Below are positions 11,219 to 20,356 of a DNA stretch of 64,000 bases, in pieces; the first letter of the stretch is position 1; every line of letters begins with the position of its first letter. Below the pieces are notes generated by a model. That model worked only from the letters and a program-made list of their open reading frames with translations. It was not told where the DNA came from and did no database searches. This DNA is from Candidatus Doudnabacteria bacterium (lineage in GTDB: Bacteria > Patescibacteriota > Doudnabacteria > UBA920): contig CAWINB010000004.1 of NCBI GenBank assembly GCA_963837465.1, forward strand, positions 458,853-522,852, given 5' to 3'. The translations under genes and the position numbers were made by a program.

Positions 11219-12883
11219 ATGGCAAAAGATATTAAATTTGGTTATCAGGCAAAAATGGCTATTAAGGCCGGCGTGGACAAAGCCGCCAATGTGGTTAAAT
11301 TGACTTTGGGCCCCACAGGCAAAACCGTAATTTTGGACAAAGGTTTTGGCAGCCCCACAATTACAGATGACGGCGTTACCGTGGCCAAGGACATTGAGCT
11401 GGAAGATAAATTTGAAAACGTGGGCGCTTCCTTAATCCAGGAAGTGGCCAATAAGACAAACGAACAGGCCGGCGACGGTACCACAACCGCCACTGTTTTG
11501 GCTCAAAAAATGATAGAAGAAGGCATTGGAGCCGTGGCTTTGAATTCTTCCCGCGCCGGGGACATTAAAAAAGGCATGGATAAAGCCGTGGCTTTTGTGG
11601 TCAGCGAGCTTAAAAAAGTTAAGAAGGACGTAAAAAACAAGGAAGAAATCCAGCAAGTCGCCACCATCGCCTCTTTGGATGCCGAAGTCGGAAAACTGAT
11701 TGCCGAAGCCATGGAAGAAGTCGGCCACGACGGCGTTATTACGGTGGAAGAAGGCCAGACTATCGGCATTGAAAAGGAAGTCGTTAAAGGCATGCGTTTT
11801 GACAAGGGCTTTGTAAACCCGTATATGGTTACCAACGCCGAAAGAATGGAAGCGGTGTGGGAAGACTCCTATATTTTAATTACCGATAAAAAAGTTTCAT
11901 CCGTCCAGGATATTTTGCCGGTTTTGGAAAAAGTCGCGCAAAGCGGCAAAAAAGATTTGGTGATAATTGCCGATGAAATAGAAGGCGAAGCGTTAACCAC
12001 TTTTGTGCTTAACAAACTGCGCGGCACATTCAATGTTCTGGCCGTAAAGGCTCCGGGTTTTGGCGACCGCAGAAAAGAAATGCTCCAGGATATAGCCGTG
12101 CTTACCGGCGGTAACGTTGTTACCGAAGATATGGGCTTAAAGCTGGACAAAACCGAGCTGACGGATTTGGGCAAAGCGCGCAAAGTTATTGCCACAAAAG
12201 AATACACCACCATAGTAGACGGGCACGGCGACAAAAAGAAAATAGAAGACCGCGTCAGCCAAATTAAGATGGAGCACAAAAATTCCACTTCCGATTACGA
12301 CAAGGAAAAACTCCAGGAACGCATGGCCCGTTTGGCCGGCGGCGTGGGCGTGATTAAAGTTGGCGCGTTTACCGAAACGGAAATGAAAGCCAAGAAATTT
12401 AAAATCGAAGACGCGCTTAACGCCACTCGCGCGGCCGTGGAAGAGGGTATTGTGGCCGGCGGCGGCGCTGCTTTGGCCAAAATCGCCCCCAAGCTGGATT
12501 CCTTTGGCGAAGACTTAAGCGATGCCGAACGCGCGGGCGTAAGGGTAGTGCGCCAGTCCCTGGAAGCGCCGCTTAGGCAGATAGCGGTAAACTCCGGCGT
12601 GGAAGTAACCGGCATTTTGCATAAAATCCAAAGCGACAGCAACCCCAACCTTGGTTTTGACTTTGCCAATTTTACGGAAAAGAACTGGCAAAAGGGCATG
12701 ATGGATATGATGCAGGCCGGTATTGTAGATCCTTTAAAAGTTACCCGCCTGGCTCTTGAGCACGCGGTTTCCATAGCCTCTACCTTAGTCACCTCCGAAG
12801 CCATAGTTGTGGACAAACCCGAACCTAAAACCCCCTCCGCCCCAGGCGGCATGGGCGGCGGCATGGGTGGAATGGATTACTAG
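11219..12883 (+). CDS. groEL: chaperonin GroEL (Cpn60)
   Basis: MAKDIKFG..., [13 protein letters not shown], and the C-terminal GGM repeat tail [12 protein letters not shown]. Confidence 0.97.
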
Positions 12884-12934
12884 ACTAGGGGATAGAGAAT
12901 AGAGAATAGGGGTTAGGGGTTAGGGATTAGTATG

Positions 12935-13063: not shown

Positions 13064-13402
13064 GGGATGGATGAGAAGATAAAAGAATTTATAAAGCTTC
13101 TCTTTAATCACGCGCGAGCGGTCGGCTACAGTCATCCTGCAGTCGACATTCTGGACAAGCCCTTGTACCGGCTCGGTATCCAGTGCTTGGCTTTTCGCCT
13201 GCGCATGATGTCAGGTCTCTTTAGTGAGGGATTTGTCGCCTTTATCATTGAAGAGCTTGAAGTAGCTTATCCCGGATTAGATTTTTACAATACCAGGAAG
13301 CTATTTACTCTCAACGCACCTCCCCCAAATTATCCAAAAAATCCTCCCCCGGATTTTTTACGTCATCATAAAGATTTTACTCACCCGCGGCTTTTCGCTT
13401 AG
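13064..13402 (+). CDS. hypothetical protein
   Basis: Strong RBS AAGGAGG 7 nt upstream of the ATG at 13064 (the ORF-track start at 12998 lacks one). No family recognised. Confidence 0.4.
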   Translation, partial: GMDEKIKEFIKLLFNHARAVGYSHPAVDILDKPLYRLGIQCLAFRLRMMSGLFSEGFVAFIIEELEVAYPGLDFYNTRKLFTLNAPPPNYPKNPPPDFLRHHKDFTHPRLFA

Positions 13403-13886
13403 CGGGTTTTGGTTTTATATAAGCCAAAATTTAACTTTAGAATCTAAAACCCTTGACCCCGTTAGAAGTTAGTAATATCATCAAATTTATATTATATATA
13501 AAGGCTAAATTTATATTTTAATCTTAAATAAGGCATTAAGCTTCTAACGGGGTTGACAAAACAGCTAAAGTGGCGTATAGTAAGTGGTTATTGTCGTAAT
13601 GGCAGTACGTTTTAAAAACTCAATACTTTGTATCAATATATTTTTACAGGAGAATATACGGATACTCCCCGCGCCAATCTTCACCAAGTTAATTTAGAAT
13701 AAAATTTTCCACATTACAGATTCAGAGAATTATTTATCCGGAAAAATTTTGATGGAGATTGACGCGGGGAAACTTATGCTCCTAATCGCGGGTTAAACCC
13801 TATTGGGGGCGCTAAAAAGCCGTATATTGCATACTAGAACGTTTTTACTAAGGTTCTCCTGTATTGAATATGCGGTTTTTATATAT

Positions 13887-13984
13887 CGAATATACGAATG
13901 GGGCGAATCAACGAATGCCTACGAATTTACGAATACTGTGTTCATTTGTAATTATTCGTATATTCGTTTCAATTCGTAAATTCG
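13887..13984. repeat. iteron-like array: six direct CGAAT pentamers (starts 13887, 13895, 13904, 13912, 13922, 13930) converging on four inverted ATTCG pentamers (13954, 13962, 13972, 13980) at 8-10 bp spacing
   Basis: Counted directly. Highly regular, about one helical turn apart, inside a ~1.7-kb gene-poor region. Confidence 0.6.
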
Positions 13985-15119
13985 ATCTACTTGTTTACGC
14001 GATCGTGGGCCTTTGGAGGGCAAATTATATTTTCCCGCCGAGCGGGATTGGCCTGTTTCTCAAAGACTCACTATTGCTTAAATAATTCAACAAAGTATAA
14101 TATAAGAGGGCGAAAACCCTCTTTTTTTGTGGCCCAAAAAAGAATCTAAAAACATCCCTTTCGGAACTTTCGCCGTTATACTATAATTAGCGACAAGTAG
14201 AGGCAAAAGTTCTGGAAGGGAGCATGCAACCTGACCAGAAATAAGGAGGTCCCCATGATAAGGATCATAATCCGGCTCCATGAGCCGGATCTCTCCTTAA
14301 ACCATACGGCCAGTAGGTTTAAGGCGTGGCTGGAGAAAGACCAGCCGATCCTAAATACACTGGGAGAAGTCTTTGTGTACGCGATTACGTTTGTTTTGGT
14401 CGCCGCCATAGGCTACTTCGCAGCAGCCGGATTTTTCCATTAAATTCGGCAAAACAATGGGGTGGTTTTGCTCCGTCCACCCCTCCTTACTTTTCCCCCC
14501 CAAATTTGTAAATCATAAAAATGGTTTATAGGTTTGGAGGTAAAATGCAGGCATTATATATCGTTGGTTTTTTTGCAGCCCTGTTCGGGGCTGCGCGTTT
14601 GGCCTATGTCTGCCATGGCGAGACGTTTTGGCCAGAGTGGATCCTGCTAAGGATCCACAGGATCCGTGAATTGAGGAATTCCTTGAGCCGCTTAATAAGC
14701 GGCAAATGGATTCTCCCCGGAGGAGGATGATTGGATAGAATTTTTCGCCCGAATATTTTGTTTGTTTGGGCGGTCGTAGCAGCCGTTGGTTTATTTTTCC
14801 TTGCCATCCTCATATCTGCCATTCGGGATTTCTGGGCGACGGCAAAGAAAAACGGCAAGGGGTGACAAGCGGGCCGTTGTGCCGTCTGCTGTCACCTCCG
14901 CTTTCCTTGAACATCGTATATTATTTCTTCCAATCCGTTGGTGATGTGCTAGCTTGGATTTTTATCGCGAGATAAAAGTTTAGGCCGGTATCCTGTCATC
15001 GCCCGCGGATTGGAGGCCGGAATGTTAAGTTTTATTTTCGAGACAATTGACGAAAACCCCCGCTTTGATTATACTTATGGCACTTTACAACTTTTTACTT
15101 TTAACTTTCAACTAATTTT

Positions 15120-15290
15120 ATGGGTGTTCCAAAAAAGCATAAGACCCGGAGTGGCCGGAATCAACGCAGGAGTCATCACGCTTTAAAAAAGGTTTCTTTC
15201 GCGGTATGCAAAAATTGCGGCCAGCCGGTTATGCCGCATTTGCCGTGCAAGAATTGCGGATTTTACAAGGGCAGAAAAATTACGAAGTAA
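15120..15290 (+). CDS. rpmF: 50S ribosomal protein L32 (bL32); absent from ORF track because it is under 60 aa
   Basis: Manual translation gives MGVPKKHKTRSGRNQRRSHHALKKVSFAVCKNCGQPVMPHLPCKNCGFYKGRKITK (56 aa). It matches L32 consensus MAVPKR..S..R...RRSH.AL....L..C..CG.....H..C..CG.Y.G. Confidence 0.9.
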   Translation: MGVPKKHKTRSGRNQRRSHHALKKVSFAVCKNCGQPVMPHLPCKNCGFYKGRKITK

Positions 15291-15380
15291 CAGCGCAAGC
15301 GGTTAGGGGTTAGCGTTTAGTAACCCAAAGCCCATCGTGGTTCCCTATACCCTAAACGCTATACCCTAAACGCTACTCCA

Positions 15381-16516: not shown

Positions 16517-16591
16517 GCGGGTATCGTATAACGGTTATTATCTCAGTTTTCCAAACTGATGATGCGGGTTCGACTCCCACTACCCGCTCCA
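16517..16591 (+). tRNA. tRNA-Gly (anticodon TCC), CCA encoded
   Basis: Manual fold: acceptor GCGGGTA/TACCCGC, anticodon stem TCAGT/ACTGA with loop TTTCCAA (TCC), T-arm GCGGG-TTCGACT-CCCAC (one C:A mismatch), 4-nt variable loop. Confidence 0.85.
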
Positions 16592-17056
16592 AGAGAATTA
16601 GAAAAAGTTGTACCAACTTTACAGGTAAAGTTTCCAGAATTTAGTAAAACCAATATAGAATTTACTGCGGTAAACTACAGAAGCAATCCCGGAGAAATCT
16701 TGGAAAAAGCTCGTAAAATTATCGGGCAATTAAAAGTGGAGTTTTCGGAATTTACCGAGAAAGATATCGAATATATTGTTATTGCCTACAAAGATAAAGC
16801 CGAGGGAAGACTGAAATCATTTCGTGAAAAAATACCCGATTTGCAAGCTAGTTTTCCTGATTTTGAAATTTGGATAATAAGATCCGTATTAGTTAATCAC
16901 CCGAATACCTATAAATTGTATTTGAAAAACCTAAAAATTAGAGTTGATGCCCTAAAAGCAAAGTACCCCTCTTTGGATTATAAAAATATTGCCGGTATTT
17001 GTGTTTTTAATAATCAAAAAGCGGAGCAAATATTAAAGGAAAGGTTTAAAGTTTAA
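16559..17056 (+). CDS. hypothetical protein with three internal ~40-aa repeats (xLxVxFxEFxxxxIEYxxIAY). Start uncertain: the only ATG lies inside the tRNA-Gly 3' half; an alternative TTG at 16700 has a GGAG RBS.
   Basis: ORF continuity. Repeat units VVPTLQVKFPEFSKTNIEFTAVNY, IIGQLKVEFSEFTEKDIEYIVIAY, IPDLQASFPDFEIWIIRSV. Confidence 0.35.
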   Translation: MMRVRLPLPAPRELEKVVPTLQVKFPEFSKTNIEFTAVNYRSNPGEILEKARKIIGQLKVEFSEFTEKDIEYIVIAYKDKAEGRLKSFREKIPDLQASFPDFEIWIIRSVLVNHPNTYKLYLKNLKIRVDALKAKYPSLDYKNIAGICVFNNQKAEQILKERFKV

Positions 17057-19037: not shown

Positions 19038-19174
19038 AACTTATCCAGAGAGCAGTTAGGGATCTAGCCCGTTGACCTGCCGGCAACCAATCGGTTTTCA
19101 CCGATAAGGTGCTAATTCTAGCCCGTAAAGGGAAAGATGAAAATTTATCTGACCCTTACAAAAGGGATTTTTTT
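19038..19174 (+). ncRNA. SAM-I (S-box) riboswitch with terminator expression platform, leader of metK
   Basis: CTTATCCAGAGAGCAGTTAGGGATCTAGCCCGTTGACCTGCCGGCAACC...GGTGCTAATTCTAGCCCGTAAAGGGAAAGATGA matches the SAM-I consensus (P1 CTTATC/GATGA, GGGA..GCCCG.TGA, CGGCAACC, GGTGCTAATTC, AAAGATGA). Terminator gacccttacaaaagggattttttt at 19151-19174. Confidence 0.8.
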
Positions 19175-20356
19175 ATGCCAAAAAATAATAATCAGGTTAA
19201 GCTGTTTACATCGGAGTCCGTAACCGAAGGGCATCCGGACAAAGTTTGCGACCAAATTTCGGACGCCATTTATGACGAGATGCTGCGGCAGGACAAAAAG
19301 GCGCACGCCGGCATAGAATGTTTTGCCACCACCGGTTTGGTCGTGGTGGGCGGCGAGGCGCGGACTAAAGCTTACGTTGACATTCAGTCCGTAGTGCGGA
19401 GGACGCTTAAAAAAATCGGTTACGATAAACCGGAGTACGGTTTTTGTTTTTCCGACGTGGGAGTAATTTCCACTTTGCATGAACAGTCGCCGGACATTGC
19501 CCAGGGCGTGGACGAAGGCAGGGGAGAATTTAAGGAACAGGGCGCGGGAGACCAGGGTTTGATGTTCGGTTTTGCCTGCGACGAAACCAAGGAGTTAATG
19601 CCGCTGCCGATTTCTCTGGCTCATCGCTTAACGCGTAAACTTGCCGAAGTCCGCAAGAACGGAAAACTTGCCTATTTGCGTCCGGACGGCAAGTCCCAGG
19701 TCAGCATTGAATATGTAAACGGCAGGCCCAAATCGGTAACTACCGTAGTAATTGCCGCGCATCATTCCGAAGACGTGAGTACGGAAAAATTGCGCGCGGA
19801 TATTACCCGGCAGGTTATAAAGCCCGTGCTGGGAAAATGGTTTAACAAAAACATCAAAATTTTTATTAATTCCACCGGCAGGTTTGTGCTTGGCGGGCCG
19901 CCGGCGGACGCGGGGCTCACGGGGCGCAAGATCATAGTAGATACTTACGGCGGTTACGCGCCGCACGGCGGCGGTTGCTTTAGCGGCAAATGCGTTACCA
20001 AGGTTGACCGAAGCGCGGCTTACGCCGCCCGCTATATTGCCAAAAATATTGTCGCGGCCGGCTTGGCCAAAAAGTGCCTGGTCCAGTTAGCTTACGCCAT
20101 TGGCGTGGCCAAACCGGTTTCCGCCATGGTGGATACTTACGGCACGGGAAAAATCTCGGACAATCGCCTGGAACAAATTGTTGAGCAAATTTTTCCTTTA
20201 AAACCGGCTGATATAGTCAAGCAATTAAATCTGGAACGCCCCATTTATGAACAAACCGCGGCCTACGGCCACTTTGGCCGCACCGACGTTAAGTTTCCAT
20301 GGGAGAAGACGGATAAGGTCAGACAGCTGAGAGGTTTGGTAAAAAGTAAAAAGTAG
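19175..20356 (+). CDS. metK: S-adenosylmethionine synthetase
   Basis: [37 protein letters not shown], and the remaining MetK signature. The start at 19175 follows the riboswitch; the ORF-track start at 19109 overlaps it. Confidence 0.95.

Follow-up and report, generated by a model that had tools for sequence, protein, structure and literature searches.

The region studied here, positions 13403-15119 of a 64-kb stretch of DNA (called the window throughout), is set among groES/groEL, a gene for a 111-aa orphan protein, three orphan peptides, rpmF, nusB, and HU. Between a hypothetical gene and rpmF it holds no open reading frame (ORF) of more than 84 aa, just as an initial annotation had reported. 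The label "gene-poor" chosen there fits as far as long ORFs are concerned but misses that the AT-rich part appears to be a conserved structured RNA with its own promoter and terminator. The GC content is 30-39% over 13400-14100, the RNA part, and 45-52% over 14200-14900, the ORF part, i.e., at the level of the flanking coding DNA, which agrees with the locally raised GC content previously noticed around 14250-14900. From left to right, the region contains a first structured element (A) preceded by a promoter, an array of CGAAT pentamers, a second structured element (B), an intrinsic terminator, three small ORFs, and a third hairpin (element C) ahead of the rpmF promoter (Table 1). The existence of these conserved structured elements is well supported by base changes that, in related loci, appear to preserve their pairing.

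Table 1. Features of the studied region, with positions in the window.
Feature	Position	Strand	Description
Inverted repeat CCCCGTTAGAAG / CTTCTAACGGGG	13457-13468 / 13541-13552		Flanks a 72-bp AT-rich stretch
Sigma-70 promoter of element A	13553-13581	+	TTGACA, 17 nt, TATAGT; 11/12 consensus positions
Element A	~13588-13880	+	Conserved folded RNA with compensatory base changes
5' hairpin P1	13589-13607	+	Followed by BoxA-like TTTTAAAAA at 13610-13618
Conserved segment ACAGGAGAAUAUACGG	13646-13661	+	Complementary to both halves of H4
Hairpin H2	13666-13770	+	Long, irregular; inverted repeat I2 plus folds; length varies between genomes
Hairpin H3 (GCUCCUAAU ... AUUGGGGGC)	13778-13810	+	Most conserved part of the locus
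Hairpin H4	13814-13880	+	Followed by a run of five U; terminator-like
CGAAT / ATTCG array	13885-13990	+	Fills the spacer between A and B exactly
Element B	13991-14085	+	24-bp stem P1 with UUUGGAGGG; 4-bp P2 (GGGC/GCCU); variable apical P3
Intrinsic terminator	14104-14130	+	GAGGGCGAAAACCCUC, then U7
ORF62	14255-14443	+	62 aa; Shine-Dalgarno AAGGAGG at 14243-14249; one C-terminal hydrophobic helix
ORF61/69	14521-14730	+	61 aa from ATG 14545 (GGAGG at 14536-14540) or 69 aa from ATG 14521; one N-terminal hydrophobic helix
44-aa ORF	14731-14865	+	TTG start; Shine-Dalgarno GGAGGAGG at 14719-14726; one hydrophobic helix
Element C	14920-15023	+	~105-nt hairpin with GNRA-type apical loop (C-GCGA-G); 3' strand with UUGGAGG
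rpmF promoter	15047-15075	+	TTGACG, 17 nt, TATACT

The gene order groES-groEL, gap, rpmF-nusB-HU is kept in the related loci L001-L021 with a gap of 0.4-4.4 kb, and the chromosomal synteny from groEL to rpmF-nusB-HU covers about 20 related genomes. The closest relatives of NusB share 65-80% identity and are labelled Doudnabacteria (Patescibacteria; candidate phyla radiation). Our comparison set comprises about 60 related loci from genomes and metagenomes; for the latter, a scan for element A gave 86 matches, around half of which were chance matches in coding DNA and were dropped after a profile check. Over 13553-13880 and 13991-14085, i.e., the two stretches that contain elements A and B, the DNA is 70-83% identical to relatives although NusB itself is only 65-80% identical. 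None of the four small proteins encoded in the gap of the window gave a tblastn match in 80 genome loci.

The pairing support for element A is carried by its H3 and H4 core, in which 96.4% of the cells of a 24-sequence alignment are paired compared with 30-45% when the partners are slid, with 10 pairs changed on both sides and conserved U-G pairs that need the plus strand. Hairpin H3, detected in 60 loci by nhmmer, has all of its 12 pairs 98% paired, and its invariant U-G pairs would be A-C mismatches on the opposite strand. The four helices of H4 are 87-97% paired with seven pairs changed on both sides. The same strand preference is seen in the predicted fold of 13585-14130, which reaches -183.4 kcal/mol on the plus strand (z = -10.2 relative to shuffles) versus -148.1 kcal/mol on the minus strand. 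Outside this core, element A is variable and ranges from ca. 150 nt (L015-L020) to ca. 550 nt through whole hairpins that are inserted or missing; H2, for example, is 70-76% conserved in L005, L009, and L011 and much shorter in the minimal loci L018-L020. A palindromic insertion of ca. 160 nt divides element A between H3 and H4 in L001 (4270-4420) and L005 (3160-3310), with both copies homologous to each other, and is a further sign that inserted hairpin modules may be tolerated in this RNA.

The conserved segment between P1 and H2 could pair with H4 in an alternative structure. In alignment A3, the first helix of this pairing (9 pairs) is 86% paired and the second (7 pairs) 64%, with four pairs changed on both sides, e.g., ACGG/CCGU to GCACGG/CCGUGC in L099 and L143, and the segment is absent from the minimal loci L018-L020. 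These data are no more than suggestive; the segment could be an antiterminator or one part of a long-range helix.

Of 20 genome loci, 19 have upstream of element A a promoter of the form TTGACA-17-TATACT/TATAGT/TATAAT with TGG(C/T)G before the -10 box, as do most of the metagenome loci. The 12-bp inverted repeat described in the initial annotation lies exactly where it had been placed: its right arm adjoins the -35 box of this promoter, and another site that resembles a promoter, TTGACC-17-TATCAT (13453-13481), overlaps its left arm. The pair, with arms ca. 45-80 bp apart, is also present in L109, L110, L121, L131, and L152; in L110 and L121, the loci where its position was checked, it is found ca. 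230 nt upstream of the core of element A and just upstream of the A promoter. The motif conserved in these pairs is (TTGA)CCCCGTTAGAAG, and L007 has one unpaired copy, TTGACCCCGTTAGAA, on the downstream side of its element B (2772). The inverted repeat may be an operator or a second type of promoter that overlaps a -35 box.

Element B was found in 35 loci, always downstream of element A. In alignment A2 with 30 sequences, 87.8% of the cells are paired versus 37-50% with slid partners; 24 of its 34 pairs are changed on both sides, none of 500 shuffles reach the observed values, and the frequent G-U pairs fit an RNA made from the plus strand. The terminator follows after a short distance in the window, and in L002, L003, L099, and L143 a U7 run stands directly after the B stem. 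A TATAAT before element B in several loci, which resembles a -10 box, is better understood as the A-rich partner of this U-run than as a promoter. We also considered pairing between elements A and B, i.e., of CUCCUAA in H3 with UUAGGAG in B, and dropped it for lack of covariation; the window has UUUGGAG here. In an assembly of the same strain from Logan (run ERR10755945; L177 and L178), there is a break in the T-run of the terminator corresponding to 14123-14127 of the window. The stretch that separates the terminator from ORF62 has an additional inverted repeat at 14155-14221, with 20-nt arms that are 85% complementary; blastn showed no conservation of this repeat in relatives, and it may be part of the 5' untranslated region of ORF62.

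The spacer between elements A and B measures 0-207 nt, and only 0-2 nt separate H4 from element B in L086, L111, and L161. This leaves no room for a promoter, so that element B in these loci would have to be made by read-through past H4. We infer that elements A and B form a single modular RNA that starts at the A promoter and ends at the terminator downstream of B.

In the window, the spacer is filled by the CGAAT array. As the initial annotation had pointed out, six direct CGAAT pentamers (13887, 13895, 13904, 13912, 13922, and 13930) converge on four inverted ones (13954, 13962, 13972, and 13980) within 13887-13984. These ten sites are packed into 98 bp and make up 10 of the 75 CGAAT sites of the whole window, where the pentamer is under-represented overall (131 expected); no similar density occurs elsewhere in the window, so a compositional artefact is not indicated, and none of 2000 mononucleotide shuffles of the spacer reached ten copies of any one 5-mer. 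All ten pentamers are perfect and the sequences between them have diverged. The array is composed of units of 17-18 nt with 5-nt repeats and 3-5-nt spacers, at a spacing of 8-10 bp, and contains five exact 13-mers CGAATNNACGAAT, of which three are forward and two reverse, with no other exact copy in the window. Each of the two reverse 13-mers exactly reverse-complements a forward one (13-mers 1 and 3), but their order is not nested. As RNA, the array is predicted to form a 100-nt hairpin of 5-bp CGAAU:AUUCG helices with symmetric internal loops between them (-37.6 kcal/mol, z = -5.4), and its ends are 18-nt imperfect terminal inverted repeats (13882-13899 / 13972-13989; 89% complementary). The array is highly non-random and built like a multi-site recognition array, which leaves room for reading it as a multi-site binding platform.

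In relatives, the same slot between elements A and B holds TGTAG arrays, TCAGCG/CGCGGA arrays, plain hairpins (about ten spacers), or no spacer at all, i.e., only three motif types occur including CGAAT. Arrays of a single 5-mer are significant in L001, L004, L009, L011, L016, L102, and L129 and borderline in L005, L090, and L101, typically with one orientation in the distal half, the opposite one in the half adjacent to element B, and a spacing of 8-11 nt; the TGTAG and TCAGCG arrays show a 10-11-bp periodicity. Arrays with the same motif share 80-91% local identity compared with 54-77% in the flanking elements A and B, and the motif type does not track the phylogeny or similarity of element B. 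For example, element B of the window has its nearest matches at loci with TCAGCG-type arrays (74-78%), and its identity to the B element of L005 is just 61% despite a match of 91% between the 5' (forward) arms of their CGAAT arrays, and the B elements of L016 and L017 are 83% identical although their array motifs differ. Perfect pentamers amid diverged spacers together with this distribution of cassettes suggest that the motif is under selection and that whole cassettes are exchanged or have long been polymorphic, and they argue against neutral slippage. Long spacers between A and B have stable hairpin folds, with z-scores of -3 to -8 in most. A different, small and conserved hairpin, CCGNCGAAGCYUURGCGAAGNCGG, with a covarying stem and conserved internal GAAGC/GCGAAG loops, recurs in the spacers of L005 (3452-3478), L007 (2399-2424), L008 (3612-3638), and L102; the window does not have it.

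At the 5' end of element A, most loci display a common series of features, i.e., the transcript start, a hairpin, CWTTAACAA at +18 to +26, ca. 14 nt, and a GU-rich tract such as UGUGUGUUUUU. The leader downstream of P2 of E. coli rrnG has, in the segment 73-145 nt before 16S, a BoxB hairpin, TGCTCTTTAACAA, 14 nt, and TGTGTGGG. According to the literature, the consensus of BoxA is GYTCTTTAANA; such elements have been documented in front of genes for Nus factors including suhB, and autoregulation via BoxA is known and has also been proposed for ribH-nusB of Pseudomonas with its putative upstream BoxA (PMC5725501). In our set, CTTTAACAA is matched at at least eight of nine positions in about 20 of 50 loci, where ca. 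1.3 would be expected by chance (3.5e-4 per position), and at seven of nine positions in the window. Compared to the rRNA antitermination leader (BoxB, BoxA, and BoxC with a complex of NusB/NusE/NusA/NusG/SuhB), element A likewise has a strong promoter, a hairpin within ca. 10 nt, a U/A-rich box resembling CUUUAACAA, ca. 14 nt, and a GU-rich tract, the module also opens a long, presumably untranslated structured transcript, and nusB lies downstream. However, CWTTAACAA is without the 5' GYT of GYTCTTTAANA and TTTTAAAAA of the window is weaker still, no rRNA follows element A, and binding of Nus factors is only predicted here. We regard the BoxA resemblance as a lead only and membership as undemonstrated.

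Downstream of the terminator, the three small ORFs with strong Shine-Dalgarno sequences and one hydrophobic helix each, first noticed in the initial annotation, are borne out by the ORF list and by Kyte-Doolittle analysis (one strongly hydrophobic 19-residue window each, mean 1.8-2.9). The gene calls of the source genome (868-kb contig) include ORF62 (P0002) and ORF61. Among 1.84 billion representative proteins, ORF62 found only itself and one repetitive, probably spurious ORF (P0003); in the related loci, ORF62 has weak similarity to a small ORF in L101. ORF61/69 matched the same strain only among 5.8 billion protein clusters (P0001), and the exact sequence of the 44-aa ORF was not in the protein collection. 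Exact-protein look-ups of rpmF, ORF62, and P0001 had no match, and later ones found only contigs of the same strain with 99.9-100% identity, too close to inform an evolutionary comparison. Local similarities do exist: the 45 nt upstream of ORF61 are 85% identical to L009, where they stand directly before a small ORF, and the N-terminus of ORF61 resembles ORFs in L112 and L114. The Shine-Dalgarno sequence of the 44-aa ORF sits inside the end of the preceding ORF, which suggests translational coupling to ORF61, and relatives encode similar coupled strings of small membrane ORFs ending in ...PGGG(N). Shine-Dalgarno sites, coding-like GC content, the embedded Shine-Dalgarno sequence, the strings in relatives, and the weak local similarities support that these are real genes, and they look like orphan membrane peptides. 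Against strong constraint counts a 1-nt deletion in the C-run at 14715 of the same-strain assembly (ERR10755945) that lengthens ORF61 to 77 aa and rewrites its C-terminus; the same assembly has a 3-nt deletion at 14486-14488. Inside ORF61 lie three GGATCC palindromes which had been reported before and are present, albeit at 14639-14665 and thus slightly to the left of 14641-14670 as first given; they are three of nine in the window, a total that is as expected by chance. Further downstream, element C is 71-76% identical in L155, L101, L011, and L006 and has a consensus fold of 46 pairs with 17 changed on both sides, from five sequences only.

None of these elements corresponds to a known RNA family. 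With Rfam 15 at the gathering threshold, the whole window contains only two tRNAs and a SAM riboswitch elsewhere, so no known housekeeping RNA is assigned to the region; in E-value mode, 13300-15200 gave chance-level matches to microRNAs and sRNAs far below threshold, and the gathering mode found nothing at elements A or B in 12 related loci. Elements A, B, and C therefore match no Rfam 15 family. ARAGORN found no tmRNA, and literature searches on non-coding RNAs of candidate-phyla-radiation bacteria, Patescibacteria, or Doudnabacteria turned up nothing that bears on elements A or B. A replication origin was rejected based on a GC skew without a switch near 13.9 kb and a motif that differs between species, unlike DnaA boxes. 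We also rejected a phage or plasmid origin: the CGAAT pattern matched two viral contigs that both had a tandem duplication in probably coding DNA, the element B pattern matched seven that were all unrelated Shine-Dalgarno junctions without a profile match, and the element A pattern matched none. A Pfam search of the region and adjoining genes had housekeeping matches only, with no rep, par, or integrase family and no match for the orphan proteins of the gap (the 111-aa protein and the three peptides).

Several other features of the window were seen in passing. The SAM riboswitch (RF00162, 58 bits) is located at 19038-19143 (plus strand) upstream of an ORF at 19109-20356, and L002, L007, and L008 also carry it, downstream of nusB-HU. 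A 165-aa ORF at 16559-17056 with a weak match to the CUE domain starts within a tRNA-Gly gene (16517-16591), and its true start probably lies further downstream. Short tandem repeats of the GGGTTAG / TAGAGAA type after groEL (12880-12930) and CCCTAAACGCTATA repeats after rpmF (15300-15380) look like repeat-rich intergenic spacers.

With a probability of roughly 55%, we interpret 13553-14130 as a strongly promoted, multi-domain non-coding unit on the plus strand with a swappable repeat hairpin that is followed by a peptide operon and a third hairpin. This unit would be expressed as a highly folded RNA of ca. 540 nt with two conserved domains that is confined to Doudnabacteria-like Patescibacteria. 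Domain A would consist of the 5' hairpin, the BoxA-like box, H2, H3, and the terminator-like H4, and domain B would be the long hairpin that closes the unit, either via its own U-run or, as in the window, via a separate terminator. Between them, the CGAAT array would be a variable middle module whose hairpin arms carry the same pentamer in opposite orientation, i.e., one of few interchangeable cassette types. The BoxA-like module might recruit antitermination factors of the NusB/NusE type as it happens in rRNA leaders, which would enable the polymerase to pass H4 and make the full-length RNA, and the repeat hairpin could be a platform for a multimeric binding partner instead of random structure. 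Downstream, 14255-14865 would be a short operon of fast-evolving single-helix membrane peptides, and 14920-15023 would form the third conserved RNA hairpin before the separate rpmF promoter. Co-transcription, Nus dependence, and any binding partner or function are what we infer on top of what the sequences show directly: conservation, covarying base pairs, promoter and terminator motifs, and how the arrays are distributed. Several observations weigh against this interpretation. The BoxA-like copy of the window is weak, agreeing with GYTCTTTAANA at eight of 11 positions where the best relatives reach 10 of 11, and neither the window nor the related loci that were fetched contain an rRNA operon for comparison. 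H4 and its U-run may simply terminate transcription, and elements A and B would then be two RNAs. The array is missing from about half of the spacers, so that it must be dispensable for A and B, L005 has forward CGAAT copies only and no long hairpin, and no candidate binding protein for the array was identified. Finally, the spacer folds have no consistent strand bias across loci, and the arrays could therefore act as DNA and not as an RNA hairpin.

If the array acts as DNA, it might be a multi-site operator or a centromere-like platform for a cooperative protein, e.g., one that binds each CGAATNNNCGAAT site as a head-to-tail dimer, and might control transcription of element B and the downstream genes or organize the locus. 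A multi-site operator had already been proposed in the initial annotation and agrees with an array built like recognition sites, but no DNA-binding, partition, or replication gene was recognized nearby. The ten perfect pentamers amid diverged spacers would reflect selection on the motif itself, the non-nested reverse 13-mers fit repeated sites better than an optimized hairpin, and both the missing strand bias and the forward-only copies of L005 are readily accommodated; the periodicity of the TGTAG and TCAGCG arrays points in the same direction, but the window with its spacing of 8-10 bp is off the helical repeat. Since element B needs no promoter of its own where the spacer is 0-2 nt, motif types switch between close relatives in a way that would be unusual for an orthologous chromosomal regulator, and there is no viral link, we consider action as DNA rather unlikely. 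Even less probable in our view is that the array represents a small palindromic element, non-autonomous and either mobile or recombining, similar to miniature inverted-repeat transposable elements (MITEs) or to REP elements, that landed in the spacer or was swapped into it and has no function of its own. Its terminal inverted repeats, three discrete cassette types with patchy distribution relative to the phylogeny of element B, cassettes that are more alike than their flanks, slots that are empty or hold other hairpins in many relatives, and the further palindromic inserts inside element A of L001 and L005 would all be expected of such an element. However, the 64-kb window has no second copy, a clear target-site duplication is not visible, no transposase gene was recognized beside the studied region (which was all that this screen covered), and the perfect pentamers amid diverged spacers again indicate selection. 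Similarly unlikely is the idea that the slot is a polymorphic recognition module, of which at least three cassette types, each with one short motif repeated periodically along both hairpin arms, would be exchanged between Doudnabacteria lineages and match fast-evolving multimeric partners. The non-coding RNA would then combine a scaffold, a swappable specificity module, and rRNA-like antitermination, comparable to incompatibility or immunity types but within a chromosomal RNA gene.

Another possible, though doubtful, explanation is that element A acts in cis as a BoxA/Nus-responsive attenuator in which ACAGGAGAAUAUACGG competes with H4 and thereby sets read-through into element B, the small ORFs, and finally rpmF-nusB, with feedback by NusB. 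This would make sense of the 5' segment, which could pair with either half of H4 and shows some compensatory changes, of the minimal loci L018-L020 where element A is directly upstream of rpmF-nusB, and of the known BoxA autoregulation of Nus factors including the putative ribH-nusB BoxA of Pseudomonas (PMC5725501). Yet pairing in the alternative helix reaches only 64-86% and the 5' segment is missing from L018-L020, a canonical promoter lies between element A and rpmF in the window (15047-15075) and its equivalents stand directly after element A in L018-L020, and in most genomes element A and rpmF are separated by one to four kb of variable DNA. Very unlikely, finally, is that the small hydrophobic ORFs are type I toxins regulated by the structured RNAs (element B, element C, or an antisense transcript). 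The three peptides, each 44-62 aa long with a single hydrophobic helix and a strong Shine-Dalgarno sequence, have the expected format, ORF content is variable and lineage-specific, and hairpins B and C bury GGAGG-like sequences, but neither hairpin overlaps the start sites of the ORFs and no antisense promoter or overlapping RNA was found. The peptides have no Pfam family and no homologues beyond the same strain, and searches of Pfam and protein collections gave no link to known toxins, holins, or bacteriocins, all of which had been suggested earlier; moreover, the strings of coupled small membrane ORFs in relatives look like a membrane-peptide operon and not like toxin-antitoxin pairs.

Bacteria of the candidate phyla radiation have tiny genomes and almost no characterized regulatory RNA, to which the locus would contribute three structured RNA elements that are conserved and absent from Rfam. 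The layout of an rRNA leader upstream of nusB would make control by Nus factors outside rRNA testable in a deeply branching lineage, and the repeat-hairpin cassettes are unusual: their three motif types recur at one slot without following phylogeny, which suggests either that RNA modules pass from lineage to lineage or that some unknown partner recognizes their sequence. For annotation, the lesson is that AT-rich "gene-poor" gaps in such genomes can hold RNA genes.

Among known systems based on short repeats, TIGR arrays with their Tas proteins are found in phages and parasitic bacteria and consist of 36-nt units with two alternating repeats of 8-12 nt and 9-nt spacers beside a gene for a Nop-domain protein (PMC12045711). 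Short conserved repeats, short variable spacers, and locus-specific repeat sequences are shared by the CGAAT array, but we rejected this assignment based on its smaller units (17-18 nt), repeats (5 nt), and spacers (3-5 nt) and because no gene for a Nop-domain protein (Tas) was recognized nearby. Plasmid iterons and type II parC centromeres (R1, pB171) resemble the array in their clusters of short direct repeats with regular spacing (here ten CGAAT in 98 bp), in the arrangement as two blocks, and in motifs that differ between relatives. However, the locus is chromosomal and syntenic (L001-L021) and without a viral link in the contig scans, Pfam and the neighboring genes revealed no adjacent Rep, ParR/ParB, or similar gene, and the 5-bp units at 8-10 bp are located between two conserved RNA domains and apparently within a transcript; the iteron or parC/parS-like centromere of plasmids or phages proposed at the outset thus found no support. 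The large RNAs OLE, ROOL, GOLLD, and raiA, whose functions are unknown or were found only recently, are, like the transcript predicted here, several hundred nt long and lineage-restricted with their own promoter and terminator, many covarying helices, and variable peripheral hairpins. They differ in sequence and structure (no match with Rfam 15 in E-value mode) and in their compact multi-junction architecture, as opposed to a row of long hairpins that varies from 150 to ca. 900 nt via the presence or absence of modules. Compensatory slippage in the expansion segments of rRNA, reportedly described by Hancock and Dover, also affects a variable hairpin of a structured RNA, with complementary repeated motifs on its two arms that vary from lineage to lineage. 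Independent slippage predicts neither the recurrence of motifs nor shared spacer sequence, and in this respect the locus differs: its three motif types recur in distant lineages, and cassettes of the same type share the sequence of their spacers.

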